Origin: Carcharhinus amblyrhynchos
Taxonomy: Eukaryota
NCBI GenBank assembly: GCA_965287045.1
Contig: OZ336882.1
Span: 48,236,001-48,300,000 of the forward strand
Direction: 5' to 3'
Length of the DNA stretch: 64,000 nt
The notes beneath the pieces were generated by a model. It was not told where the DNA came from and made no database searches. It worked only from the letters and a program-made list of their open reading frames with translations. Positions 4,205 to 63,479 of the stretch are shown piece after piece. The stretch's first letter is position 1; every line of letters begins with the position of its first letter. The position numbers and the translations under genes are program-made.

Positions 4205-4455
4205 ATTATATGGCAAGCACTGCTGCCTCACAGTGCCAGGGACCTGGGTTCGATTCTTGGCATGGGTCACTGTCTGTGTGGAGTTTGCACATTCTTCCCG
4301 TGTCTGCATGGATTTCTTCCGGGTGCGTCTGAAAGGCATGTTGGTTAGGTGCATTGACCCAAACAGGTGCCAGGGTGTGGCGACTGGGGGAATTTCACAG
4401 TTACTTCATTGCAGTGTTATTGTAAGCCTTGCCTGTGACTAATAAATAAACTTTT
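4205..4455 (+). mobile_element. tRNA-derived V-SINE (HE1-like), non-CR1 tail
   Basis: gcactgctgcctcacag..gggttcgattc (B-box-like), V-domain tgtgtggagtttgcacattc, tail gtgactaataaataaactt. Confidence 0.85.
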
Positions 4456-14069: not shown

Positions 14070-15912
14070 ATATAGCAGACTGGAAACAAAACCCCAGCTG
14101 GAAACATCCATCCAAGGCTGATGAAGGAAGTTAAGGACAGAATGAGATAAAAGAAGAGGTTTATAATGTTGCAAAGTATAGTAGTAAGCCTGAGAACTTG
14201 AATGTGTTTTAGAAATAGCAAAAGGTGGCAACATTAAAAGAGAATAGCAGCATGAAAATAACAATAGGTTGCAAGAGCTTTTACAAATATATAAAAAGGA
14301 GAACAGCAAAAGTAAAGGTTGGTCCCTTAGACGGAGAGGCAGAAAAATCTATCTTCATTCCCCATTTGTCACGGGGAATGAAGAAACAGCATAGGCAATG
14401 AACAAATACTTCATCACAATCGGACACAAGTTACAGATCAGAAATAAAGGTAATCAAGGTGCTAATATAAGCAGACAAAGAAATCTGAAGAAACTTAAGG
14501 AACGAAAATTCAACAAATCCCCGGAATCTGATGGCCTACATCCTGGTAGCTGCAGAGATAAAAAAGGTAGCTGCAGAGATATTGAATGCACTGGTTATAA
14601 TTTTCCAAACTCTCTCAACTGTAGGAAAGTCCCAGTGGATTAGAAATTAGCAAATACAATACTACTATCCAAGAAAAAAGGGAGAGAGAAAAGAGGGAAC
14701 TAAGGACCTATTAGCCTGACATGTCATAACACAAGAAGCAAAGAGTTTGGGATAGATGGTGCATTTTCAAGTTGGTGGGCTGTAACAAGTAGAATGCCGA
14801 AAGGATCAGTGTTGAGGCTTCAGCTATTGACAATCTATATTAATGACTTTGACAAAAAGACAGAGTAATGTATCTAAATTTTCTGATGATACAAAGTTAG
14901 GTGGGAATGTAAGCTATGAGAAGGACACAAAAGTTGCGGAGATAGTGATAGATTAAGAGGGTGGGCAGCAAAGTAATAGGTAGAACGTAAGCGGGCAAGT
15001 GTGAGGTTATTTACTTGATAGTAAGAATATGAGTGTTTTTTAAAAAAGCATGGAACTTTGAAATGTTGACCTTCAAAGAGGAATAGTTGTACATGTACAA
15101 GAAACATAAGCATGCATAGACAGCAAGCAATTAGGAAGGCAAATGGTACTTTCATCCTTATTTCAAAGGGATTGTAATATAAGAACAAAATCCTTGTCAC
15201 CATTTTATAGGCAAAACCACAGCTTGAATACTGTGCACAGTTTCGGTTTCCATATTTAAGGAAAATATACTTACACTGGAAGCAGTACAGCAAAGGTTCA
15301 CTGGATTGGTCCCTGGGATGAGAGGGCTTTCCTATACTGAGAAGCTGAGTAAACTGTGCCAATCTCTCTGGAGTTAAGAAGAATGAGGGGTGATCTAATT
15401 GAAACATACAATAAGAGTCTAACAACACCAGGTTAAAGTCCAACAGATTTATTTGGATCACATGCTTTTGGAGCACTGCTCCTTCATCAGGATTTTAACG
15501 TGGTGTTGTGAGACTTCTGACTGTTCCCCCTCCCCCAAACCCCCCTCCACTCCAACGCCGGCATCTCCACATCATGAAACATACAAAATTCTGAAAGGGC
15601 TTAATAGTATTTACAGAGAGATGGTTTCCCTTTGTATCTGGAACTTGGGGGCACAGTCTCAGGATGAGGCATCAGTCATTTAGGATTGAGATGAGTAATT
15701 TCTTCAAAGAATTATGCACCTTTGAAATTCTTACTGTCAAGAAGGGTGTGGATGCTCCATTATTGCATATATTTAAATCTGAGATGGACCAAAAATCTAT
15801 CTATCACAGAATCAAGGAAATACATGGGAAAGTGAAATTGAGGCAGAAAATCAACCATAATTGTACTGAATAGTGCAGCAGGCTCAAAGAGCAATCCTGT
15901 TCCTATTTCTTA
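14070..15912 (+). mobile_element. CR1 ORF2 and 3' end, decayed, hosting a Penelope fold-back
   Basis: KFNKSPESDGLHP, VPVDW-like, ttttctgatgatacaaag (FSDDTK), 3' tail cctgttcctatttcttat. Confidence 0.85.
15412..15574. mobile_element. Short Penelope-derived fold-back element with a decayed hammerhead motif
   Basis: Inverted arms (gtctaacaacaccaggttaaa / tttaacgtggtgttgtgagac), tail ctccaacgccggcatctccacatca, perfect 12-bp TSD TGAAACATACAA (15400-15411, 15575-15586). Confidence 0.85.
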
Positions 15913-18900
15913 TACTATTAGTAGGGTACAGAGGTTCAGAATGGCAGTGCTTTTGGAGCAGGGCATGTGTTTAGTAACACTATGTGTTTTATTGGGAAAT
16001 TCCTTGTGTTTGGCACAAGTGATAGGGACCTTGTGAAATGGCATTCCAGAGTCTATCAGTGCTAAAGAATGGGGGCTTCCAAGAGGATACCAGGGGTTCA
16101 GGCATTGAAGCCAAGACTTATTGGGGTTGCAGAACAGTTATGTGGCAGTGAGTGGGTATACAACCAGGATGGGATTCAGAGGGATTGCAGGGTCTAATGG
16201 GATTGAAAAGGGGGTCAAATAATGGGATTGGGATTTTGGATTGAGGACTTTTATGGGGGCAGAGGGGTGTTGAAAGATGGTCTGTATGCTTTCAGCACTG
16301 ATAGGAATAGGTCTGAGAAGAATCTGCCCCAATGCATCCTGTACGTGGCTGCACCCAGCCTTCAATGCACTCACAGTTGGCAAATACAGTGTTAACATGC
16401 ATTTTTCACAGAATGTCAGCCAAGAAATAGGATGGTGGAAGAGTGTGTTTGACAACTTATAGGCAAATGAAGATGAATTTCACTTATTTTTGCGTACCAG
16501 TTATGTTGTAGGTTTTATATTTTATCATGGAGTAATGAAAGGTTGAGGGGGGAAAATGTACTTAAAATTTTCAAATGAGATTTTGAGAGATTAAACTAGT
16601 TTGTGTCCTTTGAGAAGTTTACATATGGCCAAATTACAATTGATAAATCTACATTAAAAGTAATAAATTTGAGAGTGGATGATAGTCCTGAGATTTGTCA
16701 ACTTAAGTGCTACCTAGGAGAACAAGCTTGAAAAACTCAAACAGTGGTGACAAACACGTATAAACAAGTGTTAATCATTAGAAGGACATGACTAAAAAGT
16801 TTGATGATGCCAGTATAAGATCATATCAGGACATCTAAGTGCAGGCAAGTGAACAAGGAAAAGAAGAAATGATATTCAATAAATCTAACTATATAAAATT
16901 AAAAGCTGTTTGAAATCTCTATAAATGCTCTAATATTTGTGGGTTTGTTTTACTATCATATATTGATATTGGTGAGAGGCTGGCACAACATTTTGATCAA
17001 AAAAATTCTTGAACCAGATGATAACTTAACAATTAGTACAAGACATTACGTTAAATACAAGTATGGCTTACGTAAAGAAGAAAATAACAAAAAAAACTGC
17101 CCAAACTCTATACATCAAGTACTGGCTTCACACTAAGTGTAAGTTTTGTTGAGCTTAACTTACCGTACCTAAGAAGTACACACTTGCTTGCTGAGGCAGA
17201 AACTTGAAGTCACACAAGCGTAATTCTTTCTCCTGAATTGAAAGTACACAAAAATATACATAAAGAATATACATTGCACACAAGAAATAAGTTTTAATAT
17301 GTCAATAGTTTGACAAAATTCCTAATATCAAAAATGTAAAATTTTTAAATTTAGAAAGGAATGTACTAAAATCTAATTTTACTGGCTTAAAATATTGAAA
17401 TTGAAGTGGCCCATTCATTTTGTGCATAAAAGACCAAGTACAGGTCATCTGTAGAGAAAAATGAAGTGTTTCTGGTACTACAACAGGATGTTCATATAGA
17501 TTCCAGTTTTAAACAGTAGTGAAGCACCAGACACACAAAATGTTCAATCATTATTGCCTCCTCACATATCCAAAGATCGCTGACAGGTGCTCACCTGCTC
17601 CTTGGCAAATACATTTGCTTGCCTTTTTGGATCAGATCCTTTCTTTGCATCATCAGGCATGCCCACCATCAGTGCCACAGTAACATTTAATTTAAAAGCA
17701 TTGGAAAATGTCAATTTGACTTTATTTAAAAAACAGTTGCAAAAATAGGTTAAATGAAACACTGAATCTGGGGATGGGGCACGGAAGATTATTGAAAGCT
17801 CACTTCATGCCTCAAGTTCATGTCCTGAATTGTGCCACTCATGCTGCCTCAAGATTTCTTCAACTTCAAATATAATTATGAATAGCTCAATTATGAAGCT
17901 GCTGGAGATAATATCACAATAGCAATGCAATGATCCTATCAATTCAAGATCAAATATCTTCCATTCAATACCATGTCACACTAGGATCAGTATAACTCCA
18001 TGCTATCCTTCAAATTAACAGTTTTTAATAAAATTTAAAAAATTCATGATATATAGGTTTTTAAATATGATTCCGCTCCTGATATCCACTATAAACCAAT
18101 ATCATTTCTGGATTTTTGCAAAATAGCATTAAAGCAGTTATTTTGACATGTAAAGCAAAAGAAAAACACTGCATTTTGGGCAAAATGTTAAAAAGTTAAA
18201 AGAATTGAGTATCAAAAACAGCATCAAGAATTTTCATCACTGCTCCCAAAAAAGACCTTTTAGAAGAACTGGACAATTTTCTAACACACAAATGCTAGTC
18301 AATGGTAGTAGTTCTAAGTGCCATTCTGAGGTCATCATGGCCTTTGAACAAAACCTATGGCTTTCATATTTCATTGGATAACATATATAACTTTTGGGAG
18401 ACTCTTGATAAAAAATCTTAAGGAAAGCATGGCTAGGAATGCACCTACATACAAGAAATAGAGAAGTGTGATCAGATTAAACACTTCAATCTCATCACTA
18501 AGCTCAAACTTATTCAAGCAAAAAACGCTATTTGCAGCACTAAGTTCCACAGATTTGGAATCAGCTATCATGAGATGTAATATGGCATATTGTGAAAATT
18601 CATATTTCTGCTACTGACCAGAACTTTGATCTTTGGATTGTCTGTTCAGATCACTTCCAATAATTTGCACTTATATATTTTCTCACAGAAAGATACCTAA
18701 AAGTGACTGATTGCCATCAAGCTGGAGAGGGGAACGATTAAGTGGATACAGGAAACAAAAACAGATTTAAAAAATCTTTGAAAGGAGTTGGAGAGCAAAG
18801 TAGCTGAAGTGGGAGAAGTTTAGAAGAGCAAGGGTGTAGTGACTGAAACAATTTCTGTCAATGGTACAGCACAAAATGAACGTAGTTAGAGGGACAGTGT

Positions 18901-19564: not shown

Positions 19565-19921
19565 ATAGATCACAGAAAAGATCATAGAAACCCTACAGTA
19601 CAGAAAGAGACCATTCGGCCCATTGAATCTGCACGGACCATAATCCCACCCAGGCCCTACCCCCATATCCCTATACATTTGCCCACTAATCTCTCTAACC
19701 TACACATCTCAGGACACTAAGGGGCAATTTTAGCATGGCCCATCAACCTAACCTGCACATCTTTGGGCTATGGGAGGAAACAGGAGCAACCAGAGGAAAC
19801 CCATGCAGAGACGAGGAAAATGTGCACACTCCACACAGACAATGACCCAAGCGAGTAATCGAACCCAGGTCCCTGGAGCTATGAAGCAGCAGTACCAACC
19901 ACTGTGCTACCATGCCACCGG
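19565..19921 (-). mobile_element. V-SINE (HE1-like) with CR1-derived tail
   Basis: Antisense head (taccaaccactgtgctaccatgccacc), V-domain, tail catagaaaccctacagtacagaa..ccattcggccc. Confidence 0.9.
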
Positions 19922-20513
19922 GAGGTTGGGGAGTGGCAGCATAGGAGGACTGGGGAGAAGGGGGCATGAAGAGCAAAGAGAGGTGGCAGGAGAGGGGGGA
20001 GAGAGAGAAAGATGATGGAGATAGAGAAATGATGGGGAGGGGGAGAGATGATTGATTGGGGGAAGAAAGGGTGCTGGCGGCCGGACAAAGCCCGGGATCT
20101 CTCTCCCACGCCGCACTCAGAGTTGTCTCGGGAACTGATGGAAAGTTCTTGTTGTTGGGAAGGGGCGTGGGTGGGTGGCTAGCTGAGGCTGTCTGTCATC
20201 GCAGTGAGTGAGTGACCGACGGCGCCGCCTCGAACTCTTCTCCGCCAACCCCCCCCCCCCCCCCCCCAACATCGGGAGAGTCGGCGACAGCTTCGACCAC
20301 CCCCGGCCCGGGGAGCGGCTCCGCCCCTACAGCCGAGAGCCCGGGGCCCAGTCGGCAGGCAAGGGGGAGGGGGGAACTGAGAGAGGCCCCACCTTCCCCG
20401 GCCCCTAGGACCGTTAGCCTGTCCCAGCCTGGCCTAGACTAGCCGCGCGCTGTCCCGCCAGCCCCCCCGGGCTGGTAGCCGGTTGATTGTTGCCCCCAGG
20501 GTGCCAGCCTCAC

Positions 20514-20620
20514 CCCTCCCTCCGTCCCTCCTCCTCCTCCCCTCTCACACTCACTCTCTCTCTCCCTCCGGCAGCTGTCCGTTTGCGGCGCGCGCGGATC
20601 CGGCGATTGTGGAACGCACG
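20514..20620 (-). other. Putative non-coding first exon (5' end approximate)
   Basis: Donor GGG|GTGAGG at 20514/20513 just downstream of the promoter motifs; purine-rich, no ATG on the minus strand. Confidence 0.55.
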
Positions 20621-20655
20621 GCGGGGGGGGGGGGGGGGAGAAATCGTCCGGCCCA

Positions 20656-20743
20656 CCACGTCACAATGCCCTGGGCTCCTCGGCCAATGGGGGCCGAGCT
20701 CCGGCAACTCGTCCGCCCCTTCCCCCCCCCCCTCCCCACGTCA
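20656..20743 (-). promoter_or_regulatory. Motif cluster: 2x TGACGTGG (UPRE/CRE-like), CCAAT box, GC box
   Basis: CCACGTCA at 20656-20663 and 20736-20743, CCAAT at 20684-20688, CCGCCC at 20713-20718 (plus-strand spelling). Confidence 0.65.
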
Positions 20744-21839
20744 ACATTCCAGAGGGCGAGGCGCGTGAGGGGCGGCAGTGCTTTGTGCTGCTGCTCAGAG
20801 CCCACAGTGAGAGATAGGCTGCAGACCATAGCACATTCCGCTGACAAACATCTCAGGAAAAAAATGTCTCATCCACTTCTAAAATAACGTAGCATTGTGG
20901 ATGCTGCATTTGCTGCAAGACATCTTGCTGCTTAAAATCACATTTGAATCATACTATCTAGAAATAAACTTTTGGTAATATCTAATTGTTTAATATTGCT
21001 AAGACCATATTTCATATTGCTAAAGCCAAATGTAGACAATTGAATTGCAATTTTTTTTGCACCGAAGGACAAAGTCGTTACATTTCGTGAAAAGAATACA
21101 GTTCCCCTCATGTAAGGCTCCCCAGAAGTCTGCATAACAATGTCTAACATTTCTTAACTGGTGCTATGACTCAGAAGCAGGCCTTTCAGCCACCTCTTCC
21201 CCAGCCCTCTTCCAAAGTAATTGTGAAGATCTAGTTCTAATCTCCTGTCTTTTTTCACGTAACACTTCTGCATCCAATTCCTGTTTGAAAGCCACGATTG
21301 AATCTGCCTCCTCCATCACACTTAATCTAATTCAGGTCCCCACCGTTCACTACACGACAGTACTTTTACAAATAGCTTATTTTGTTCTCTTCCATTCTTC
21401 AGCGTTCACCTCATTGCAGTCCCTTCCATCGTACAGCAGAACTGTTAATTGAGAATCCTGAGCCCCTCTCCTAGATCTCCTATTTTCTGACTGCTATAGC
21501 CTCAAAGGTTTCACTGAGGCCTGCTGTGATCCCTTCAATTAAGAATTTTTTCTGTGACAGAGTTGGTGCATCACCCCACCCATCCTTCCCAATTTGTTGA
21601 TAAGACAATAAGTGGGATGATTTTTAGTTTATTAGTATCAAGAGTAGGTTTACACTAACACTGCAATGAAGTTACTGTGGTTTGCTCTTCTTGCTCCATA
21701 TGGGAAACCAGACATCGAGTGCCCAGGGCCAGAATGTATGCAAGAATGTGTCCAGCTACAGCTCCTGGAAACTCAAGTTTCAGAGCTGAAACCACAGCTA
21801 GGGACACTGTCGCGCACCCATGAGTCAGAGTATTTAGAA

Positions 21840-21978: not shown

Positions 21979-24113
21979 AAAGGGAGGTGTTCATACCGCA
22001 ACTGAAAGGACTTAAGGAACAGAATGGGTGACCACCAGATAGTCCAAGAGATGTAGACGGGTAGTTCAGGAGTCCCTTGGAGTCTCGCCTGCAAATTGGT
22101 ATTCTATTTTAGAGGCTGATGAGGACGCTGGTTCCTTTAGGGAATGCAGACAGAACCAAGCTTCTGGCACCACAAGTTGCCTGTCTGTATGGGGCGGGGC
22201 AGGGTGGAGAGGAGAGCGAGAGAGCGGCAGGGCAATAGTAAAAGGGGATTCAATAGTCAGGGGTATAGATAAGCACCACTGTGGCCAATGTGACTCCAAG
22301 ATGGTACGCTGCCTCCCTGGTGCTAGGGTCTGGGATGTCATTGAATGGCTGCAGGGCATTCTGAAGGGGATGATAAAGGCAGAGGTCATGGTATGTTTTG
22401 CTACCAATGACATAGATAGACAGAGAGATGAGGTCATGCATCAAGAATACAGAGTGTTAGGCAATAGACTAAAAGGCAAAATCTCTCAGGTTATAACCTC
22501 AGGATTACACCCAGTGCTGTGTGCTAGCAAGCACAAAAACAGGAGGTTAGTGCAGATGAATGCATGGTTTAACAATTGGTGTAGAAGGGAGGGTTTTAGA
22601 TTCCTGGATCACTGGGACCATTTCTGAGGAAGGCAGGACTGTTTACGTTTCAATCAGAACAGGAATAACATCCTTGTGAGACGTTTTGCTAGTGCTGTTG
22701 GAAGGAACTAAAGTAATTTGGCAGGGGAAGGGGACACAGACTGTTCGCAGAATAATACAGCAAAAAAAAGTCAGAGGGAGTGCAGTTTCAAGGGAGTAAG
22801 GCTGGGCTGGATGGCCCCTATTTTAATGCCAGCAGTATTGCAGGTAAAATAGATGAGTTGAGGGCAATGATTGATATGTGGAAGTGTGATATAGTAGCTA
22901 TCACAAGGACACAGTTGAAGGAAGGACACAATTGACAACATTCCAGGATTAGAATCTTCAGGTGAGGTGGTAAAAGTGGAGGAGACATTGCATTATTTGT
23001 TAAGAAATCAGTTACTAAGTAACGAGAGATGATGTATGGGAGGGGGCATCAAATGAAACTTTATGGGTAGAGGTTAGGAATAAAAAAAAGGACAGCCACA
23101 TTTTTAGGTGTTTATTATAGACCCCCAGATAGTCAGAGGGATATTGAGGAGCAAATGTGTGCTCATTTTGTAGATGTGTATAAAAATAATAAATAGGGTT
23201 ACTGTATGAGATGATTTCAACTTTCCCAATATTAACTGGGATTATACATAGTGTTAAGGGCTTGAATGGAATACATTTCTTAAATGTGTACAGGAGAACT
23301 TTTTAAATCAATATGTGGACAATCCAGCAAGGGAGGGAGCTGTGCCTGACCTGATTCTGGGGAATGAAGCCAGTCAGGTAGTTGAGGTGGTGGTGGGGGA
23401 TGGCGATCACAACATGGTACGATCTGGCTAAGGTAAACTGAGAACAACTACTTATGGGAAAATCTACAGAAGAGCAGTGGGCGGCATTCAAAAAGGAAAC
23501 GGGGAGCGTGCAAGCCCAGCATGTTCCCCCTAGGGTGACAGGTAGGAATAACAAGCCCAGAGAATCATGGATCACCAGAGACATTCAGGATATAAGGAAA
23601 AGGAAAATAAAAAGGCTTTTTTAAAAAGTACAAGGGGAGCAAATCAGTGGGGGCATTAGTAAGGTATAGAAAGTGCAGGGTGGAGCTTAAGAAAGCAATT
23701 AGGAAAGCGAAAAAGTGTTATGAGAAAGCTCTGGCTGGTAAAAGTAGGGAAAATCCCAAGATATTCTGTAAGTATATCAACAGGAAGAGGATAACCAGGG
23801 AAAGAGTACAGCCCATTAGGGAACTCAGGAGGCAGTCTGTGGATGCAGCCAGAGGACATCGGTAGAGTGTTGAATGAATATTTCACATCTGTCTTTACCC
23901 AAGAGAATGAGGACGATGATACAGCATTCAGGGAGAGGGACTGTGAGATTCTTCAGCAAATTGACATAGGGAAGGACAAGGTATTGGCAGCTTAAAAGTG
24001 GATAAATATCCAGGTTCAGATGGATTATGCCCTAAGCTGCTATGGGAGACAAGGGAAGAAATTGCAAGGGCTCTGACCCAAATTTTCAATTCATCTCTGG
24101 CCACAGGGGAGGT

Positions 24114-24874
24114 ATGATGTGGAGATGCTAGCATTGGACCGGGGTAAACAATAAAAGTCTCACAACACCAGGTTAAAGTCCAACAAGTTTATTTGGTAGC
24201 ATAAGCCACTAGCTTTCAGAGCACTACTCCATCAGGTGATAGGAGTTCTACTCACAAACAGGACATACAAAGACACAAACTCAATTTACAAGATAATGAT
24301 GGGAAAGTGAGTCTTTACAGGTATTCAAGTCTTAAAGGTACAATGTGAGTGGAGAGAGGGTTAAGCACAGGTTAAAGAGATGTACATTGTCTCCAGACAG
24401 GACAGTTAGTGAGGGTTACAGATATTGTGGCATGAACCCAAGATCCTGGTTGAGGCCATCCTCATGTGTGTGGAACTTGGCTATCAGTCTCTGCTCAGCG
24501 ACTGACTCTGCATTGTCGTGTGTCATGAAGGCCGCCTTGGAAAATGTTTACCCGAAGATCAGAGACCAAATGCCATGACCGCTGAAGTGTTCCCTAACAG
24601 AAAAAGAACACTCTTGCCTGGTGATTGTTGAGCGGTGTTCATTCATCTGTGTCCTTTAAGACTTGATTACCAGTAAAGACTCACATTCCAACCATTATCT
24701 TGGAAATTGAGTTTGTCTTTATATGCCCTGTTTGTGAATAGAACTTCCACTCACCTGATGAAGGGGCAACACTCCGAAAGCTAGTGGCTAGTGGTAAACC
24801 TATTGGACTTTAACCTGGTGTTGTGAGATTTCTTATTGAGTTTATCCCAGTCCAAAGCCGGCACCTCCACATCA
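24114..24874. mobile_element. Penelope-like element, inverted-repeat insertion with GIY-YIG C-terminal remnant
   Basis: About 220-bp inverted terminal copies starting ATGATGTGGAG / ending CTCCACATCA; minus-strand remnant QMNEHRSTITRQECS; TSD CAGGGGAGGT/CAGGAGAGGT (24104-24113, 24875-24884). Confidence 0.9.
24751..24787 (+). ncRNA. Minimal type-I hammerhead ribozyme motif, catalytic core intact
   Basis: UCAC-CUGAUGA-A-GGGG(CAACA)CUCC-GAAA-GC-UA-GUGG: stem I UCAC/GUGG, stem II GGGG/CUCC, palindromic AGCU in place of stem III, NUH = CUA. Confidence 0.75.
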
Positions 24875-26204
24875 CAGGAGAGGTGCCAGACAACCAGAGA
24901 ACTAATGTGGTTTTGCTATTTCAGATGGACTGTAGAGATAAACCAGGGAACTGCAGACCAGTGAGTCTGAGGTCAGTGGTAGGGAAACTATTGGAGAAAC
25001 TTCTGAAGGAGAGCATCAATCTCTGCTTGGAGAGACAAAGCTTCAGAGGGAGGTCATGACTCTCAAATTTGATTGAATTTTTGAGGCAGTGACCAGGTAT
25101 ATAGACAAGGTAATGCAGTCAATGTAGTTTATATTGATTTCAACAAAACTTTTGACAAGGTCTCACATGGGAGACTTATAAAGAAGGCACATGCACATGG
25201 GATATAGGATAATTTGATAAAGTGGATTCAAAATTGGCTCAGTTGTAGGAGACAGAGGATGACGACAGAAGGCTGCTTTAGTGACTGGAAGTCAGCAACC
25301 AACAATGTACCACAGGGATGTGTCTTGGGCCCCCCATTATTTGTCATTTATATAAATTATATTGACAATTATGTGGGGGTAGAATTAGTAAGTTTGCAGA
25401 TGGCACAAAAATTGAACTGTTGGTTAACAGTAAGGTGGTGTGGCTTGGGCTACAAAAGATGTAGATGGTCAAATGGGCAGATAAGTGGCAGATGGAATTT
25501 AACCCTGAAAAGTGTGAAGTGATTTGGAAGGTGCAATTTGACAAAAAAAATCCTCAATGAATGGTAGGACGCTACGAAGTTCTGTGGAAAAAGCGACCTT
25601 GGCATCTTTGTCCACAGATCTCTGAAACCAAAAGGCTTATTAGCAGGGTGGTGAAAAAGGCATAATGGACACCTGCCTTTATCAATTGAGGCATAAATTA
25701 CAAAAGCAGAAAAGTCATGTTGGAGTTAGACAGCACTTTGATAAGGCCACAGCTATGTACAGTTCTGTGTGCCACTGTTGGAAGCATGTGATTGCATTGG
25801 AGGGGATGCAGAGGAGATTTACCAGGATGTTGCCTGGGATAGAACATTTAAGTTAGGAAGAGAGGTTGGATAGGTTTGGGTTGTTTTCACTGGAGCACAG
25901 AAGACTGAGGGCTAACCTGATCGAAGTGTACAAGATTATAAGGGTAAGGAGCTTTAGTTGAAGGGTCATCACAAGGGGTCATAGGTTCAATGTGAGGGGC
26001 AGGAGATTTTGGGAGAAGGGAGTTGGGGGGGGGGGGGGGATGTGAGGAAAATCTTTCTTAACCAGAGGGTAGTGACGATCTGGAATACGCTGCTGGGGAC
26101 AGTGGTAGAGGTGGGTTGTCTCACACCCTTTAAAAATTATCTGGATGAGCACTCAGCATATCATAACAATCAGGGCTACTAAGCCTTTCTGCGCTCTACA
26201 ATTC

Positions 26205-26430
26205 TATGAAAGTCGCCACACTCTGCTGCCTGTTCAGATACATGGAGGGAGAAATCAGCGTGGCCAATGCACCTAACTGACAAGTCTTTTGGACTGAAGG
26301 AGGAAACCAAGGAAATCCTTGCAGACACAGGGAGAATGTGCAGACTCTGTATGGACAGTGACCAAAGCCAGGAATCGAATCTAGGTCTCTGGCGCTGTGA
26401 GGCAGCAGTGCTAACCACTGTGCCACAATG
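26205..26430 (-). mobile_element. V-SINE (HE1-like)
   Basis: ctggcgctgtgaggcagcagtgctaaccactgtgccac is the antisense SINE head. Confidence 0.85.
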
Positions 26431-26699
26431 TTGCCCATAAAATCAAGTGTAGGATCAGGCACAAGATCAGGTATATTGCCTGCTCTTATCATCTTAGATC
26501 TAGTACATCTCATCTGTGGGGACCATGAATTGATTTGAATTTGATTTCATTTTTGTAGCAGGTTAAAATCTTGTCCTGTCCACTCTGCACATTGGCTTTG
26601 TTAACTCAGTGAAAGGAATAAAGTTTAAAGAGCAACAGCCAAGGACACCATTCAGAGTCTCATTCTAGACACAAATCCCCTCGGATTACTAGTCTACAG

Positions 26700-27580
26700 T
26701 TGGAAAGGTTTCAAAAAGGAATTCCAGAGTTTAAGATCTAGGTAGTTGGAAACATTGTCACCAATAGTAATTATGTAAAAATAAGGTGTGCAAGAGGCCA
26801 AAATTAAAGGAGCACAGATATCTTGGAAGGTTGTAGGGTTGGCAGAATTTACAGAGATAGGCAGATGTGAGATAATTAAAGAATTTGAGAAGGAGGATGA
26901 TAATCTTACAATCGTGGCATTCAGACTGGCAGCCAATGTAGGTTGCTATGCACAGGGGTGAGTGATGAACAGGATTGGTGCAAGTCAGGATTCAGGCAGG
27001 AGAATTTTGGATGAGCTTAAGTTTATGAAAAGTGGAAAGCCAAACAGCAGTGTATTGGAATAGTCAAATTGAGTGAACAAAGACACGGGGGAGAGTCTCG
27101 GCAGCATACGACTTAAGGCAGGAGTGGAGTTGAATAGAGGTGGAAATAGGTGGTCTTGGTGATGGCATAAATATGGTCAAAAATCATCATAAAACCAAAT
27201 ATGAGATTAAGGTAGCAGATACTCCGGTTCAGCTTCAGACAGTTGCCAGAAAGAGATGGAGATGACAACAAACAAACAGAGTTTCTGGGGAGGATCAAAG
27301 ACAATGGCTTCTCTCTTCATAATATTGTTAGAGAAAATTTCTGCTCATCCCATACAGGACATCAAGCAAACAGTCTGGCAATACAGAAATCAAAGAGGGG
27401 TTAAGAGAGGTGATGATGAGCTTGAGCTGAGTGTTTTTAGTATAAAATGGAAACTGATGTTGTTTTCAAATGATGTCCCCAAAAGGCAACATGTAAGTGA
27501 AAACTAAAAAGGGGTGACGGATAGATCCTTCAAGGACTCCAGAAATAATAGTGCAGGAGCAGGAAGACAGCACCAGTGAT
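26700..27580 (-). mobile_element. Old L2-like LINE fragment
   Basis: Minus-strand remnant LDLKLWNSFLKP; similar to 45980-46440 and 57930-58390. Confidence 0.55.
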
Positions 27581-27599
27581 TCTCACAAATTACATCTCA

Positions 27600-27960
27600 G
27601 TTAAGAAACTCACCAACATGTCTATTTTCTAAGATTAAAGAAATTCAGCATGTCCATAATGACTCCTACCAATTTTTACAGATGCACCATAGAAAGCATC
27701 CATTCCAGATGTATCACAGTTTGCTATGGCTCCTGCTCTGACCAAAGGACTACAAAGGATCGTGAGTGTAGCCCAGTCCATCAGGCAAACCAGCCTCTCA
27801 TCCATTTACACTTCCTGCTGCCTTGGAAAAGCAGCCAGCATGATCAAGGACCCCATGCACCCCAGATACACTCTTCCATCATCTTCTGTTGAGAAAAAGA
27901 TAGAAAAGTCTGAAAGCACATACCAACAGGCTCAAGAACAGCTTCTATCTGCTATCATTA
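27600..27960 (+). mobile_element. Rex1/Babar-type LINE RT C-terminal fragment
   Basis: TNFYRCTIESI..CITVCYGSCS; LQRIVSVAQSI; KAASMIKDPMHP. Confidence 0.75.
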
Positions 27961-28049
27961 GCATGAAATATTATGGCATCAGGTCTGGGAAAAAACTTCT
28001 GCCGATTACCATCTAAAAACCCTCCGGCCCTTTGATCTTATCCCCACCA

Positions 28050-31000
28050 TTCGACCTGTCACAACTGCATTTGTCCATGACCGTACTGGTAGGAGTGACC
28101 ACTGCATAGTCCTGACGGAGACCAAATTCTGTCTTCACTCCATCGTGTGTGGCACTACTACCATGCTAAATGGGACAGATCTAGCAAATCAAAACTGGGC
28201 ATCCATGAGGTACTGCAGATGCAGAAGCAGCAGAATTGTAAAAATCAAAATCTGTCAGCTTGTGGTTTAGCATATCCTCAATTCTATCATTACTATCAAG
28301 TCAAATAGTCAATTCTGGTTCAATGAAGAGTGCAGGAAGGTATGCTAGGGGCAGCAACATGCATACCTAAAAATGAGGTGTCAACCTGGTGAAGCTACAA
28401 CACAGGACTACCTGCATGTCAAACAACAGAAACAGCATGCAACAGATAGAGCTAAACAATTCCATAACCAAGCAATTATATATAAATTCTGTAGTCCTTA
28501 CATATCCAGCTGTGAACAGTGGTCACAATTAATCAACTCACTGGAGACGGCAGTGGTTCCACAAATATCTCATCCTCAATCAAGGGGAGCCCAGGACATC
28601 AGTGCAAAAATATAAGGCTGAAGCATTTGCAACCATTTTCATCCAGAAGTGGTGAGTGGGTTAAAATTTGAGGTGACCAGGTGTGGATGTGGGTAATGCA
28701 GTTGATGTAGTTTGGATGGATTCCAGCAGTCTTTGATAAAGCCACATGTGGGAGACTAATAAAGAAGGTAAATGCATGTGGGATACAGGGTAATTTGAGA
28801 ACATGGATTCAAAATTGGCTAAGTTCTAATGATGGAAGAGGCTTATTTAGTGATTGGAAGCCAGTGTCCAGTGGCATACCACAGAGATCTGTGCTGGGTT
28901 CTCTATTATTCATCATTTATATAAATGACAAAGATGACTATTTTTGGGTGGGGGGGGTGGGTGGTGGTGGTAGGATTAGTAAGTTTGCAGATAATACAAA
29001 GATTGGTTGGGTGGTTAACAGTGAAATCAAGTGTCTTGAGCTTGAAGATGATATGGACAGGATGAGAAGTTTGAAGTGATACACTTTGAGGGAGTAATGT
29101 CACAATGAAGTATTCAGTGAACGGCATGACGTTAGGGAGGTTCTGTGGGACAAAGGGACCTTGGTGTTTTTGTCCATAGATCTCGGAAGGTGGAAGGGCA
29201 TGTTAGAAAGATAGTGAAGAAGGCATATGGTACACTTGCCTTTATCAATCGAGGCACAGATTACAAAAGCAGGGAAGTCATGTTGGAGTTCTATAGCACT
29301 TTGGTGAGGCCACAGCTTGAATTGTGTGCGCAGTTGTGGTTACCACATTGTCAAAAGGATGTTATTGCACTGGAGAAGGCAGAGGAGATTCACCAGGATG
29401 TTGTCTGGGATGGAACATTTAAGTTATAAACAGAAGTTGTATAGGTTTGGGTTGTTTTTGCTGGAACAGAGAAGACCGAGGAGCAACCTGTACAAGATTA
29501 CAAGGGGCATGGGCAGAGTGGATAAGGAGCAGCTGTTTCCCTCAGTTGATGGGTCTGCCCTGAAGGGACAAAGGTTCAAGGTGGGGGGCAGGAGGTTTAG
29601 GGAATGTGAGGAAAAACCTTTTTACCCAGAGGGTGGTGACGAGCACTTGGAATGTCAATGTTGAAGGCTATGGTACATGGGATTAGGTGGGAGGTCAGGT
29701 ACTTATGTGTGGTGCCAACTTGATGGGCCTCTTCTGCACTTTGATTCCATGGTTCCTCCTGAAGTGTCTAGCATCACAGATGCCAATTCAATTCATGCCA
29801 ATTCAAAAAATGGCTGAAGACACTGGAAACTGCAAGGGCAATGGGCCCTGACAACATTCCAGCAACAGTCTCCTGCTCCAGAATTAGCTGTGCCACTAGC
29901 CAAATTGTTCCAATACAGCTGCAACACCAGCAATATGAAAATTTGTCCAGTTACGTCCTGTACGCAAAAAGCAGGACATATCCAACCTGGCTAATTACAA
30001 CTCCACCAGTCTACTCTTAATCATCAGTAAAGTGTTGTGGACAATACTATCAAGCATGACACATCAATAACCTTATCGCTGCCCAGTTTGGGTTTTGCCA
30101 GGGACACTGAAATCTTGGCCTTAGCGTCTTGGTTCAAGAGAACTGAACTTGAGGGCAGGAGAGAGCAAATGCCCTTGCCATCAAGGTAGCACTTAACCAA
30201 GTGTGATATTAAGGAGTACTAGCAAAAAATAGGAATTAGAGGAAATCTTTCCACAGATTGAGAGTTGTACCTAGTACTAAGACAGACAGTTGTTGTTGTT
30301 GGAGGACAGTTATCTCAGCTCTTGGCCTAACCATTTTCAGTTGCCTCAAATTATCTTCCTTCCATTATAACATCATAAATGGGGGTGTTTGCAGATGATT
30401 GCACAATATTTTGCAACTCCTCAGTTATTGAAGCAGTCTGTCTCCAAATGCAACAAGCCCTGGAAAACATTTAAGCTTTAGTTGACAAATGGCAAGTAAC
30501 AGTTACATAAAGTGCTGGACAATGCCCATTTCCAACAAGAGCAAATCCAGCCATTTCTCCAATGACATTAAATTACTTTACCATCACTGAATCCCCATCT
30601 ATGAATATCCTGAGACTTAGCATTGACCAGAAATTGAACTGGACCAGCCATATAAACATAGTGGCTACAAGAGCAGGTTAAAGGTTGGGAATTCTGTGGC
30701 AAGTAACTCACCTCCTGACTTCCCAAAGCCTGCCCATAATCTACAAGGCACAATTCAGGAGTGCAATGGAATACCCTCCACTTGCCTAGATAAGTGCAGT
30801 TCCAACAACACGCAAAGCTTGACATCTTCCAGGCCAAACCTTGCTTGTTGCACCCAATCTATCACCTTAACCATTCACTCCCTCAACCACTGATTACAGT
30901 GGCAGAGGTTTGTACAATCTACAAGGTGTACTACAGCTACTCACCAAGACTTCTCTGACAGTATCTTCGAAACCTGCAATCTCCACCTTCTCAAAGGACA

Positions 31001-31260
31001 ATGACAGCTGATGTTCCACCACCTGCAAACTTCCACTCCAAACTACACACCATTCTGACTTGAAAATATATTGTCATTCCTTCACTGTCGCTGGGTAAAA
31101 ATCCTGAACTGCCTTCCCAAAAACACTGGGTGTATCTACACCACATGGTTCCACAGCGGTTCAAGAAGGTAGCTCCCCACCACCTTCTCAAGGGCAATGG
31201 GAACCCGACAATAAGCGTTGGGCTAGCCAGTGACATCCACATCCCTTGAAAGAATAAATT
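28050..31260 (+). mobile_element. CR1-clade LINE ORF2, decayed, interrupted by another CR1
   Basis: ggccctgacaacattcc (GPDNIP), gtttgcagatgattgcac (FADDC), 3' end cacatcccttgaaagaataaa. Confidence 0.75.
28665..29755 (+). mobile_element. Nested CR1 RT and 3' end
   Basis: SGIPQRSVLGSLLFIIYIND, ISKFADNTK, QRDLGVFVHRS, RRFTRMLSGM. Confidence 0.85.
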
Positions 31261-32751
31261 AAGCAAAAATTGAATAGAAGGATGCAGAACAAAGGGTCTC
31301 CGCTCCATCCATATTCGGCCTGATATTTCCACTTGGGGATCAGTGGGCAACAGATTTAAGGTAAGAGTTTGCCAAAAGAACTCGAGAAAGATATGCGGAG
31401 AATATTTTTGCCAATTACAATCTGGAATGCACTGCATGACATGACAATGGAATCAGATTCAATAGTAACTTTAAAAAGTGAACTGAAAATATAATTGGAG
31501 AAGAAAGAAATGTTGGGTTATAGGAGAGAGGGGAGCAGGACTCTTAATTCTTTCAGAGTCAACATAACCATAATACGCTGAATGAATGTACTGCATGCTT
31601 CTACACTTAAGCCACAAATTACCATTTGTAACTGAATCATGGACTGAGATCTGTGTTCTCTGTTAAATCGCACACCCAAAAGTGGAAACTTTGGGCCAGA
31701 TTTTGGTGGACATGTTGCATCTTGCAGTGTGGGTTAGTTATACCCATCTCTGGACATGTATATGAACATAAGATGTCCACCGAAACATCTTGCGTCATAA
31801 CTTGCTGGAAATTAGTTGTTAATGGTATAGGGAGGACCATGTTCATTGAGGACCTTAGTTAATGATGAGGTCAGAGAACAATTAATAAATGCATTTTTCA
31901 ATACTAGATTGGGAAAATAAAAAATTAAGAATAGTCTAGCCAGACAAAAGAAACAAATAAATCATGTTGAAATCAACATTTATCTGCCTTGAGACAAGTT
32001 TTGACTTATGCAACGTCAGTGCCTTTGTACTTTCAGCCAACAAAATGAACTCTTCCCTCTCCGTTGCATAATATCTGCAAAGTGCTCCATCTAGTGATCA
32101 CTTTGGAAAATGAAAATACAGTTTCATTTGATTCAAGCATCCAGATTTGACTGCATTAGCTTAGAAAATAGCTATTTTGTTTCTTAAGTGCTGACTGTGA
32201 AATTCATCTGTAATGAGAGCAGATGTTAGGTGAAAATAGCCAATGTCTAACACCAAAAATAAAAGTACACCTATTGTATGGTCCAAAGGCGGCTGATAGT
32301 CCCACATTTTAATCTTGCTTTGGATGATGCACTTGCTAAATATTTGACCAGTTGTTTAGTATTACCTGGGAGACTTTCTTATATTGGCAAAATCAGTTAT
32401 TGGCTGTGGCATTAATTCAGGTGGTGCAAATGCTACCCTAAAATGTCAAGCTCTTGATATAACTATTGTTGGCCAACTGTACTACCAATTTTAATGCATC
32501 ACTTTGCAATGTTTTCAACTGTTAAAAATCAAATTGGTTTTGAGTGGCATTTCTCGCCTGCATTTGACTTCTCCATGGGGTTCTGCTTTTCCAAGCTTCA
32601 TAACAATGCAATGTGGCAATAAAAGATACATAAAACTAAACCAAAGAATATGCTTGTTGTGGTTTGCTTTCTGTGAGCCTCATTCTAAGCTAACGATAGT
32701 GGAGGGCTTGGCCTATTTGAGGATTACTTGTTTATCATATAATCAGACTAT

Positions 32752-34192
32752 ATAAGAACATAAGAAACAGGAGCAGGAGTAGGCCATCTAGCCCTTCGAG
32801 CCTGCCCCGCCATTCAATAAGATCATGGCTGATCTGTCATGGCTCTGTTCCACATTCCCACCCTCTCCCCATAACCCCCTTGCTTATCAAAAACCCATCA
32901 ACCCACGTCTTAAAAATATTTAGCGAGGCAGCCTCCACCACCTCAACGGGCAGAGAATTCCAGAGATTCACCACCCTTTGAGTGAAGAAGTTCCTCCTCA
33001 ACTCCGTTCTAAACCCCGCCCCCCCCCTTATCTCGAGGCTGTGCCCCCTAGTCCTACTGTCCTTTCTGAGTGGGAAGAGTCTCTCCACCTCTATCCTATC
33101 CATCCCATTCATCATATGTCTCAATGAGATCTCCCCTCAGTCTTGTAAACTCTAACGAGTACAAGCCTAGTTTATTCAGCCTCTCCTCATAGTTCAACCC
33201 CCTCAACTCCGGTATCAGCCTAGTAAACCTCCTCTGCACTCCCTCCAAGGCCAAAATATCCTTGCGTAAGTACGGCGACCAAAACTGCACACAGTACTCC
33301 AGCTGCGGCCTCACCAATGCCCTATACAGCCGCAGCAAGACCTCCCTACTTTTATATTCAATCCCCCTCGCTATGAAGGCCAGCATCCCATTTGCCTTCC
33401 TGACCACCTGCAGGCTGGGTTTTTGCGACTCATGCACAAGGACCCCGAGGTCCCTCTGCACTGTCGCCTGCTGCAGTTTTTCGCCACGTAAGTAATAGTC
33501 CTTCCTACCATTATTCCTACCAAAGTGGACCACCTCGCACTTGCCAACATTAAATTCCATTTGCCATTTCCTGGCCCATTCGCCCAGCCTATCTAGATCC
33601 TTCTGCAGACTCTCCGCACCTTCCGCGCAATTTGCCGTTCCACCAATCTTGGTGTCATCAGCAAATTTTGACACCATACACTCGGTTCCCTCCTCCAGAT
33701 CATCTATATAAATGGTAAATAGCTGAGGCCCCAGCACCGACCCCTGGGGCACTCCACTAGTCACCAACCGCCAATCCGAATAGCACCCATTAACCCCCAC
33801 TCTCTGCCTCCTATTGACAACCAATCCTCTATCCACGCTAACACCCTATCCCCAACTCCATGCCCCCTTAACCTTCTGCAATAACCTCTTGAGGTACCTT
33901 GTCAAACGCCTTCTGAAAATCAAGACAGACCACATCCATCGGCTCTCCTCTATCCACCGCCCTAGACACATCCTCATAGAACTCCAGTAAATTTGTCAGA
34001 CACGACTTCCCCTTAACAAAACCGTGCTGCGTCTGCTCTATCAACAATTCCCCTCAAGATGCCTCGCTATTTCCTCCTTGATGACGGATTCTAACATTTT
34101 ACCTACAACAGACGTTAAACTAACCGGCCTATAATTCCCTGACTTTTGCCTGGCACCCTTCTTAAACAACGGCGTAACATTAGCCGCTTTCC
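32752..34192 (-). mobile_element. Young 5'-truncated CR1 LINE
   Basis: 246-aa uninterrupted RT ORF 33096-33836 (SGVPQGSVLGPQLFTIYIDDL, SKFADDTK) continuing by frameshift into 32837-33124; CpGs retained; tandem tail (taagaaca)n. Confidence 0.95.
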
Positions 34193-36403
34193 ACTTTTCA
34201 TGAAGACCTTGAGCATTTATTCTTCCTCAGTCTGGCCAACTGAATAAAGAGCTGTTTATGGTGCTATTTCGATTTCATATAAGCTTTACCAAACGTAATT
34301 GAATTTCCTTCCTCAAATTTACCTGATTTGTTGTGCAGTACTGCATAATCATACCATGCAATGATTGTGCTCGATACTTTGCAATGCTAATTTTGGTACA
34401 CAAGGAGCAACTGGGTGGAAACAGTGCTTCTGAGACTAGCTTGAAAATAAAAATATGATTTTTGCTTTAGCAACATGATAAGGATTCAATTCACGTAGAA
34501 AAATGTTCTTAAAACATCTATATCGGAAAGCAAAGTCATAAGGGCAGGTAATGTAGTGAGCTAAGGTCAAGCATTTTAATTATTGGATCAGGAAGTCTTA
34601 AATTTAACATCCATCCCCTTATACAAGAACTGTGTTTTGCAATTTACCTTGTTATTCAGTTTACTTAGTTATAACTATTTTAGTAAATTAGCTTGATTAT
34701 CTAATTTATGGGATTAAGTAATTAACTGATTTGATAAAGATTCCAATATACCATGTCAAAAAAATAAAGACCATTTCACTGTTTGGTACAGGTACAGTTC
34801 TTTTGAATATGATTCAGGGATGGTTTTTTTTAAACTATTGTTTTACTTGCAAAAACAATGTAATTAACTATAATTATGAACAAATTAACCAGGTAATACA
34901 ACACATTTATCAACATTTCAATATTTTGTAGCCATATGTATATGTGACATTGGATATTTCCAAGCTACTAGCTTGTGTAATTAGATTATGTATCATAATT
35001 CTGGATGCCCCCGAGGCTTGTATAATTAGACTATGTAACATAATTCTTATACAGAACTCATGAAAATCAGAAAACTTTTTTTTTAAGTTATGTTGCATTG
35101 AGGACTTTAGTTACCTAAATGTAGAATGGGCCAATGGCAGTGTAAAGAGCGTTGTCAGGTAAACATTTCTAGATGGTGTTCAGGAAATTTTTCTACAGTA
35201 CATGTCCAGTCCACCAAGAAAGGTTGCACTGTTAGATCTGGTTCTTGGAAATGGGGTGAGCCAAGTAGAAAATTTAGGAAACAGTGATCATTGTATCATG
35301 AGGTCCAAATATGTGCAGGCAATGGTAAATTGCCCCTTAGTGTCAAAAGATGTATAGATTAAGGTGGACCCCAGAGGATCCCATTACTGGCCAATGGTGC
35401 GTTGTGCAGAAAATCCCATTCAAAGAAGAAAAAGTGTCCTTATTATAAGTGTCATGTACAAAATACAACTGAGAACCAAGATGAACACAGAAGTTTCAGA
35501 GGAGAGGTGAAAAGGCACATTTAATAAATAAAGGTGGATTATGAGAAAAAAACTGGCACCAACATAAGAGGAATTGCAAAGTCTTGTGTCAGCATATAAA
35601 TAGTAAAAGGAGTAGGGCCAATTAGGGACCTAAAAGGGCATTTACACATGGAGACAGGAGGCATGGCTGAGATATTAAATGAACTTTACATCAGTCTTTA
35701 CCAAGGAGGAAGATGCTACCCAGGACATGGTTACAGATGAGGAAACTCTGGCACTAGAAACTGATCAGGAGCAAGACAGACTGTCAGCACTTAAAAGTTG
35801 ATACTGGGACCAAATGAGATGCAATCAATGATGTTGAAGGAAACGAGAGTGGAAATTGCAGAGACACTGCCACAATCTTTCAGTCTTCTCTAGACTCAAG
35901 AGGATTGAACAATTGCAGACATTACTCCCTTGTTCAGAAAAAGTTATAAGGATAAGCCCAGCAATTATAGACCAGTCAGTTTAACTTCATTGATGGGAAG
36001 TTTCTGGAAACAATTACTTGGATATAATTAGTGGTCACATGGAAAAATGATTAGGTTGATTGGAAATCCATGCTGGATCTTCCCAAAGGGAAAATGGTGT
36101 TTAATTAACTTGGATTTTTTTAAAAAAAGCATTAACAGAAAGGATCAATGAGAGCATTGCTGTTGATGTGGTGTACGTTGTCTTTCAAACAGCATTTGAT
36201 ACAGTGCTACAAAAGACTTGAGAGAAAAGTTACAGCTCATAAAATAAAAGGTGCAATAACAACATGGATAAAATTCACTGAGTAATAGAGAATGGAGAGA
36301 ATTGATCCAAAACAAAAAAATGCTGAGAAATCTCAGCAGGTCTGACATCTGTGGAGTGGACAGATAGGTGACAGATGAAGTTCAATGTAGAGAAATGTGA
36401 GCA

Positions 36404-37210
36404 ATGATGTGGAGATGCTGGCGTTAGACTGGGGTGCGTACAGTAAGAACAGCAGGTTAACGTCCAACAGGTTTATGTGGAATCACAAGTTTTTGGAACA
36501 CTGCTCCTTCATCAAGTGAGTAGAGAGGTAGGTTTCACTAACATTCACAAGGATTGTGCAAACCCAGGCCTCTGCAAGATGTGCCGGAACATCGACATGA
36601 TACCACCATCGTATGTGGGACCACCACTCACCAGATACAGAGTACATGCTCATGAGACTCGGTCAATATCGTCTATCTCATACAGTGCAGGAAAAGATGT
36701 TCCGAGGCATGGTACATTGGCGAGACCACACAGACACTATGAAAACAAATGAACGGACATCGTGCAACAATCGCCGGGCTTCCGGTCAGGGAATATTTCA
36801 GCAGTCAAAGCATTCAGCCTCCCACCTTCAGGTAAACGTTCTCCAAGGCAGCCTCCAAATCACACGACAACACAGAATTACAAAGCAGAAGCTGATAGCC
36901 AAGTTCCGCCACACTAGACATAAGCCCCACTCTTTGGTCTGGGCTTGCAAAATCCTAACTATCCTGGCTTGAGACAATTTATACCTCTTTAACCTATGAT
37001 TATCTCTCTTTCCATTTGCACTGACTGTACCTGTAAAGACTTGATTACCTGAAAAGACTCGCATGCTAACTATTATCTTGCAACTGTGAGGTTGTCTGTA
37101 CATGCCTTATTTGTGAAACCTACCTCTTCACTCACCTGATGAAGCTCCGAAAACTCGTGATTCCAAATAAACCTGTTGAACTTCAACCTGGTGTTGTGAA
37201 ACTTCTTACT
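36404..37210 (+). mobile_element. Penelope-like element with GIY-YIG endonuclease remnant and inverted terminal copy
   Basis: From 36671 translates VYLIQCRKRCSEAWYIGETTQTL*KQMNGHRATI, with upstream CKMC; inverted copy at 36404-36540; TSD GAGAAATGTGA (36390-36400, 37211-37221). Confidence 0.9.
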
Positions 37211-37344: not shown

Positions 37345-37652
37345 AAATCGTAGAATCCCTACAGTGCAGGAGGTAATTCAGCTCCGAGTCTGCACTGACC
37401 ACATTCCCACCCAGGACTATTCCCATATCCCCACACATTTACCCTGCTAATCCTCTGACCCCAAAGGTCAATTTAGCATGGCCAATCAACCTAATTTGCA
37501 CATCTTTAGATTGTGGGAGGAAACTGGAGTACCCGAAGGAAACCCATGCAGACATGGGCAGAACGTGTAAACTCCACACCAGTGATCCAAGGCCAAAATC
37601 GAACCAGGGTCCCTGGTGCTGTGAGGCAGCAACGCTAACCACTGTGCTACCG
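37345..37652 (-). mobile_element. V-SINE (HE1-like) with CR1-derived tail
   Basis: Antisense head gtgaggcagcaacgctaaccactgtgctacc; tail tagaatccctacagtgcagg. Confidence 0.9.
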
Positions 37653-43686: not shown

Positions 43687-43792
43687 AGTCTCAACACCAG
43701 GATAAATTCCAACAGGTTTATCCGGTTGGATTTTAACCGGGTGTTGAGACTACTTACTGTGCATACCCCAGTCCAACGCCGGCAACTCCACA
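43687..43792. mobile_element. Minimal Penelope-derived fold-back element
   Basis: 30-bp arms (26/30 complementary), 5-nt loop, tail ccccagtccaacgccggcaactccacatc, TSD TCTTAAATTT (43677-43686, 43793-43802). Confidence 0.85.
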
Positions 43793-49624: not shown

Positions 49625-49927
49625 AAATTTAGTTTATTTATTCATGTCACTAGTAGGCTTACATTAACACTGCAATGAAGTTATTGTGAAAACCCCTTGT
49701 TGCCACACTCTGGCACCTACTCAGGTACACTGAGGGAAAATTTAGCATGGCCAATGCACCTAACCAGCATGTACTTCGGACTGTGGGAGGAAACTGGTGC
49801 ACCCAGAGAAAATCCACACAGACAAGTAAAACATTCAGACTTCGCACAGTGACCCAAGCAGGGAATTGAACCCAGGTTCCTGGCGCTGTGAGGCAGCAGC
49901 GCTAACCCCCACTGTGCCACCATGCTG
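49625..49927 (-). mobile_element. V-SINE (HE1-like), non-CR1 tail
   Basis: Antisense head and V-domain; tail agtttatttattcatgtcac. Confidence 0.9.
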
Positions 49928-63317: not shown

Positions 63318-63479
63318 AGTAAGAAGTCTCACAACATCAGGTTAAAGTCCAACCAGTTTTTGATAGTAAACCCACAAGTTTATAAAATTTACTATCAAAT
63401 AAACTGGTTAGACTTTAATCTGGTGTTATGAGGCTTCTTACTGTGTTTACCCCAATCCAACATTGGCATCTCCACATCG
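63318..63479. mobile_element. Short Penelope-derived fold-back element
   Basis: About 54-bp inverted arms around a 17-nt spacer, tail ccccaatccaacattggcatctccacatc, TSD TCTCTGCTGC (63308-63317, 63480-63489). Confidence 0.85.

Follow-up and report, generated by a model that had tools for sequence, protein, structure and literature searches.

The window, the whole 64-kb stretch of DNA analysed here, contains a motif that reads like a small self-cleaving ribozyme, and the locus raises the question of whether this motif is a chance match, a ribozyme at work or the relic of one. The original prediction described an intact minimal hammerhead with a full core, both stems and the palindrome AGCU, and all of these are present:

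24751-24787, plus strand: minimal type-I hammerhead motif with a complete core (sequence, descriptor, shuffles).

Read from the sequence, its letters are TCAC CTGATGA A GGGG CAACA CTCC GAAA GC TA GTGG, so that the core boxes CUGANGA, GAAA and UH are all there. In hammerhead numbering, C3 to A9 occupy 24755-24761, and a single additional A (24762) stands between 9 and 10.1. Stem II, 24763-66 with 24772-75, has 4 bp (G-C, G-C, G.U and G-C), and the G10.1-C11.1 pair is present. GAAA (G12 to A15.1) lies at 24776-79, G15.2 and C16.2 at 24780-81, U16.1 at 24782 and A17 at 24783, giving the triplet CUA and a predicted cut at 24783/24784. Stem I (24751-54/24784-87) consists of three Watson-Crick pairs and one U.G. 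There is no helix III; the AGCU palindrome at 24779-82 makes 15.2/16.2 palindromic.

A hammerhead descriptor applied to both strands of the window gave 24751-24787 as its sole strict match, while 200 dinucleotide shuffles gave no strict match and 0.03 loose matches per shuffle. A match by chance would be in keeping with the Rfam search, in which no hammerhead was among the 13 matches at E up to 5, and with the folding energy of the isolated 37-mer, which is not better than that of its own shuffles (z -0.14); the evidence for the motif is therefore the motif and its context rather than folding energy. The shuffle counts speak against chance, as do the position of the motif in the pseudo-LTR of a Penelope-like element (PLE) and the presence of the G10.1-C11.1 pair and the palindrome, hallmarks that the descriptor does not demand. 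We give the chance reading practically no weight and regard it as effectively refuted already. The motif is real, and none of the sequence features published for the minimal hammerhead of Penelope elements is missing from it.

The element that carries the motif (insertion A) is a 761-bp, 5'-truncated Penelope-like copy at 24114-24874, with the minus strand as its sense strand. It has the following parts:

24102-24113, plus strand: left target-site duplication (TSD), 12 bp with 1 mismatch (sequence comparison).
24114-24360, minus strand: 3' UTR and pseudo-LTR in the element's sense (window self-comparison).
24206-24239, minus strand: hammerhead of the 3' pseudo-LTR, decayed (A9 lost in a 3-nt deletion; C11.1>T).
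24419-24655, minus strand: C-terminal fragment of the PLE GIY-YIG endonuclease, with a frameshift and a stop (tblastn).
24653-24874, plus strand: pseudo-LTR arm, inverted and 5'-truncated, located at the insertion's 5' end and bearing the motif (alignment to the other arm).
24780-24793, plus strand: 7-nt tandem duplication beside the cut, a subfamily feature (also in the other arm; contigs; folds).
24836-24874, plus strand: 39-nt "tail", bounded by the two end positions of the family (loose contig ends concentrate at 24835 and 24874).
24873-24884, plus strand: right TSD (sequence comparison).

The TSD score was equalled in none of 400 random pairs, and the host reading frame, which we take from familiar motifs to belong to a CR1/L2-like RT remnant, runs on across the insertion. 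The two hammerheads of insertion A lie on opposite strands about 550 bp apart. When one arm is compared with the reverse complement of the other, the two are 80% identical over 215 aligned positions; since they were presumably near-identical when inserted, the copy is old. The intact motif, being within the inverted arm, is antisense to the ORF of its own element, a point that the original prediction left unstated.

Four further insertions of the family were found in the window. The four decayed homologues that had been predicted, one of them the hammerhead in the other arm of insertion A, are all there, each with a lesion in the core or in a stem:

15412-15574, no strand assigned: insertion C, a short fold-back of two pseudo-LTR ends with a broken hammerhead; 12-bp TSD.
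15458-15491, minus strand: broken hammerhead of insertion C (G12>A, U16.1>A).
36404-37210, plus strand: insertion B, with inverted arm, linker Zn-finger, GIY-YIG fragment and 3' pseudo-LTR; 14-bp TSD.
36483-36519, minus strand: broken hammerhead in the inverted arm of insertion B (C3>T, G12>A, 15.2 G>A).
37132-37160, plus strand: second, broken hammerhead of insertion B (8-nt deletion in stem II; 15.2 G>A).
43687-43792, no strand assigned: insertion D, a short fold-back without a hammerhead; 10-bp TSD.
63318-63479, no strand assigned: insertion E, a short fold-back with the 3' part of a hammerhead only; 10-bp TSD.

All five insertions have inverted arms and 10-14-bp TSDs, and in four of the five the tail is missing from one arm, which then ends about 35-40 nt short. 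In insertion B, the inverted arm spans 36404-36545 (minus), the linker Zn-finger and GIY-YIG fragment lie at about 36550-36960 (plus) and the 3' pseudo-LTR has no tail; both of its hammerheads are broken and share the non-palindromic AACU (A at 15.2). The presence of this A in both arms suggests that the source RNA may have been without the dimer palindrome by the time of its transposition. The 7-nt duplication is absent from insertions B and C. No RT was found in the five insertions, all of which are truncated. A sixth, partial hammerhead remnant, 63372-63385 (minus) in insertion E, retains the 3' part only and was absent from the original prediction. One of five family hammerheads in the window is thus intact, as neutral decay predicts. 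The only other plus-strand homologue of the motif is 12.4 kb away and broken, and the window holds no intact same-strand partner for a dimer.

Other repeats accompany this family in the window. An open frame of 249 codons at 33096-33845 (minus), in a CpG-rich stretch, contains an RT domain (Pfam RVT_1, E 2e-13) and is probably a young LINE copy. Another abundant dispersed family, SINE-like in size and present in both orientations, has copies at 4211-4331, 19729-19918, 26212-26434, 37450-37658, 49689-49925, 52076-52153 and 61329-61443.

The endonuclease fragments place the element. A HMMER scan with the insertion B fragment, its two stops read as X, returned 92 proteins at E up to 1e-3; among the 10 of these 92 that were looked up, of which four are unnamed or hypothetical, the best named relatives come from Heptranchias perlo and Rhincodon typus, and it is from these closest named matches that we call the element a shark one. 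RT is present in the relatives P0013 and P0094. P0013 (881 aa) combines RT, a DKG motif and a C-X5-CxxC linker with a GIY-YIG-type region at its C-terminus, and aligns to insertions A and B alike; tblastn of P0013, P0011, P0005 and P0002 against 24419-24655 (minus) gave E values of 6e-13 to 3e-6. Insertion B has a C-terminal GIY-YIG endonuclease with a Cys pair between its motifs and shares the C-X5-CxxC linker with the relatives, while this linker region is not kept in insertion A. Pfam gave no match on the decayed endonuclease fragments alone, and a word-index protein search with the insertion B fragment confirmed 0 of 14 candidates. A CX2-5CxxC linker upstream of the endonuclease marks Neptune or Nematis in passages of Craig et al. 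(2021, PMC8557442), and parts of a preprint surveying vertebrates report only Neptune and Poseidon (Li et al. 2026, bioRxiv 10.64898/2026.07.22.740005), which together make Neptune likely. The family is thus probably of Neptune type, a label taken from the linker motif, which Nematis has too, and not from an RT tree. These relatives and the pseudo-LTR context bear out the predicted Penelope-type minimal type-I hammerhead in the pseudo-LTR of a shark-like element. Among the relatives, P0002 (XP_067831053.1), annotated as a shark cytochrome P450 isoform, has the linker and endonuclease of this PLE as its first ~150 residues, either an exonisation or an annotation artefact. In metagenomes, a protein scan confirmed 5 of 305 candidates, all at distant loci and none with a credible hammerhead; among viral contigs, none of 8 protein-scan candidates was confirmed, and scanning metagenome and viral contigs for the DNA pattern gave no matches.

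Contigs of the family were collected from four public runs that represent three organisms and no more than three samples, from genomes or samples other than the window's; no RNA run was among those that the sequencing-run search listed. The shares given below are depth-weighted and were drawn through an 80% identity filter towards the insertion A copy, and are therefore biased towards that copy. Per run, 22,889-36,435 contigs matched the 251-nt arm, a figure that is not a copy number, and loose ends piled at 24835 and 24874 in all four runs. Past the distal end at 24874, the letters begin so that the tail ends in ATG (agreement only 0.35), a hint from the loose ends that the ORF of a next tandem unit starts there. 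The family majority letters (A65 in 45-54%, G71 in 58-65%) agree with the consensus of the original prediction and make stem II 5 bp long; at position 17, the rows and loose ends listed have A, U or C. Helix changes, in window copies and family contigs, are one-sided only (A-U/G.U), together with CpG decay. The catalytic change G12>A accounts for 17-20% of depth and C11.1>T for 22-28%, against 19-23% and 8-15% for two control CpGs in the tail, outside the ribozyme. Decay at G12 is about that of the controls, which argues that individual copies decay neutrally at this catalytic base. The excess conservation of the core across copies that had been anticipated was not seen at G12, the sole core position compared with controls; such a result is what dead copies should give and does not count against the parent element. 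In insertion A, the 12 core bases survive with a p of 0.22-0.37 at 8-12% divergence per arm. The 5-bp majority stem II and the losses in the present motif fit selection in the parent and decay in this copy.

Predicted folds bear on whether this copy could cleave. In a 58-nt context, stem II has a p of about 0.9 and stem I of about 0.7; in a 141-nt context, the p of stem II is 0.02, as it is outcompeted by pairing with the downstream end region. A predicted alternative helix joins 24766-24773, in stem II, to about 24822-24829, just before the proximal end site; it would switch the ribozyme off and may relate to protein-assisted folding. The plus strand of the whole element is predicted to fold back on itself (-359 kcal/mol), with 28 of the 37 motif bases paired to the antisense arm, although a transcript starting inside the element would avoid this fold-back. 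For a dimer, the double-hammerhead fold scored -11.3 kcal/mol and an inactive dimer fold -16.8 kcal/mol in a model that ignores the core's non-canonical pairs; these modelled energies do not support a dimer.

These folds weigh on the proposal that this copy has been retained for, or performs, self-cleavage within a host transcript. The core is intact, and a CpG island lies some 4 kb from the motif: 20100-20850 has a GC of 57-66%, a CpG o/e of 0.6-0.7, a CCAAT and two CACGTCA motifs (at about 20.1-20.8 kb), and is probably a promoter. Survival of the core nevertheless fits chance, a stem II pair has been lost at a family CpG, the fold-back is predicted to sequester the motif, stem II is almost absent in the 141-nt context, and no intact partner is available in cis. 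Near the island, the best exon candidate faces away on the minus strand and has no confirmation by homology. A host role for this copy is accordingly very improbable. That candidate, 17595-17765 (minus), is the top-scoring one; its donor is strong and a start codon may lie close to its 3' end, and no homologue of it was found.

The 7-nt duplication offers another route to activity. Set beside the cut, it lengthens helix I in predicted folds, or could pair as an alternative helix III (A79-U89, G80-C88, C81-G87, U82.G86). In this second register, the hammerhead would be monomeric, with a helix III of 3-4 bp and another cut site after 24790, a one-step natural gain of helix III that would turn a dimer-dependent minimal hammerhead into a two-register switch. 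The descriptor finds the second register, its energy for the named helices only is -6.4 kcal/mol compared with -6.3 kcal/mol for the minimal form, the duplication is present in both arms of insertion A and in contigs of all four runs (the 24790 variant occurs in 78-103 contigs per run), and helix III reaches a p of 0.18-0.57 when the 5' flank is trimmed at 24751. With the natural 5' flank, however, the p of helix III is no higher than about 0.03, the duplicated bases being taken up into a longer helix I, while the alternative stem I has a p of at most 0.07 in six of six folds. The family letter at 24790 makes a CUU triplet, a weak cleavage site for hammerheads, and insertions B and C do without the duplication. 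We consider both the monomeric register and the switch that it would create highly unlikely. Among the papers listed in a literature search for a helix-III-gaining duplication variant of this kind, none described one in its title or abstract.

There remains what the ribozyme did in the parent element. The original prediction had the family's RNA processed by cleavage after 24783, and the arms provide some evidence against this. Read by eye, the starts of the 8 truncated arms fall upstream of the cut in four cases and about 5-22 nt downstream of it in the other four, with none at the cut itself. A cDNA that reaches the ORF must cross the uncut hammerhead, as the sense arms of insertions A and B did; these arms, and the four truncated ones that reach upstream, indicate that templates were uncut there. 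Of the joint rows listed, 5 of 15 connect opposite strands in a fold-back, and one of their sides falls at 24745-24748, immediately upstream of helix I; the other side of these joints is unplaceable because insertion A's own lesions break the alignments there. A conserved splice acceptor at this place was rejected, as the AG at 24740-41 of insertion A is missing from insertion B. Further counter-evidence comes from PAc, the Poseidon element of Anolis, whose tail is defined by two RT start sites: passages of Frangieh et al. (2024, PMC11167929) report that cleavage needed the element's protein, that HHR mutants were unimpaired for insertion in vitro and that no RNA-seq reads ended at the HHR cut.

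It could still be argued that the ribozyme routinely cuts element RNA after CUA and that the short 3' products template the short arms. The arms that begin a few nucleotides downstream of the cut would suit such products, the family majority retains the core and the 5-bp stem II, and dimer cleavage is published (parts of PMC4209133 and PMC6765202). Routine cutting is in our judgment rather unlikely, given the lack of arm starts at the cut, the arms and junctions that lie upstream of the motif, the insertion of B despite AACU in both arms and the behavior of the PAc mutants.

We instead favor, with considerable confidence, the explanation that the motif is a complete minimal type-I hammerhead in an old PLE arm and likely an inert relic, with an origin and a parental role as follows. 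It starts from the observed motif, fold-back anatomy, target duplication, endonuclease fragment, family abundance and CpG decay. Insertion would have occurred by target-primed reverse transcription that began at the two end positions of the family. These presumed priming sites, separated by 39 nt, are found 52 nt and 91 nt downstream of the predicted cut, and a second truncated cDNA would have been joined in inverted orientation. Since the cut sits between the priming sites and the ORF, the hammerhead would have been left uncut on RNAs serving as templates. The parent element, probably Neptune, would cut after CUA only as an AGCU-palindrome dimer or with the element's protein. By analogy with known elements, the parent likely carried a working, dimer- or protein-assisted ribozyme, which most likely acted occasionally, trimming read-through or tandem transcripts. 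At this locus, the core would have escaped mutation by chance.

The copy closely resembles published systems. In parts of Cervera and de la Pena (2014, PMC4209133), metazoan PLE min-HHRs are described as inactive when single and of low activity as dimers, and are known from fish Xena, Poseidon and Neptune elements. The present motif shares with them the type-I topology, full core, lack of helix III, palindromic 15.2/16.2, additional base between 9 and 10.1, G10.1-C11.1 pair and short helix I; those motifs likewise lie in pseudo-LTRs, mostly as single motifs from truncated copies, with opposite-strand pairs 100-700 bp apart. Stem II differs, in that this copy has 4 bp and the family majority 5 bp as opposed to 7-8 bp in Schistosoma, and the 7-nt duplication beside the cut also sets this copy apart from the motifs in those parts of that paper. 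No shark names were found in the text portions or two supplement files of PMC4209133.

For EN+ PLEs, sections of Craig et al. (2021, PMC8557442) describe units that include a 5'-truncated copy in inverted orientation together with a tail of 30-40 bp. The inverted truncated arm, the tail at one end only, the C-terminal GIY-YIG with two Cys between motifs and the CX2-5CxxC linker (Neptune/Nematis) are alike; unlike the units described there, the insertions here have, in five of five cases, 10-14-bp TSDs in non-microsatellite targets, and the window has no full-length copy. With PAc the distances agree: its HHR cut is 85-92 nt upstream of the main start site, and the cut here is 91 nt from the distal end. 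PAc, as portrayed in parts of PMC11167929, differs in belonging to the Poseidon clade, in having no linker Zn-finger and in having a measured activity. Non-LTR retrozymes, reported in one chondrichthyan genome, also have a type-I HHR in PLE-derived sequence but are head-to-tail tandem repeats with no ORF (portions of Li et al. 2026, bioRxiv 10.64898/2026.07.22.740005), whereas insertion A is inverted, TSD-flanked and endowed with endonuclease sequence. A retrozyme was ruled out on the inverted arms and the endonuclease fragment, and a new MITE-like class was ruled out because inverted arms with a tail are published PLE anatomy.

The association of hammerheads with PLEs, the anatomy and the dimer model are already published (in parts of PMC4209133, PMC8557442, PMC6765202 and PMC6155905). 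No paper describing this shark family was found by title or abstract, with Repbase, Dfam and some supplements outside the scope of that search. The arrangement was described in 2014, and insertion A, as one more copy of a known class, matters little alone; being decayed, it is a poor test substrate compared with young full-length copies. With a family this abundant, it would be possible to tally where arms are truncated at the 5' end relative to the cut site.
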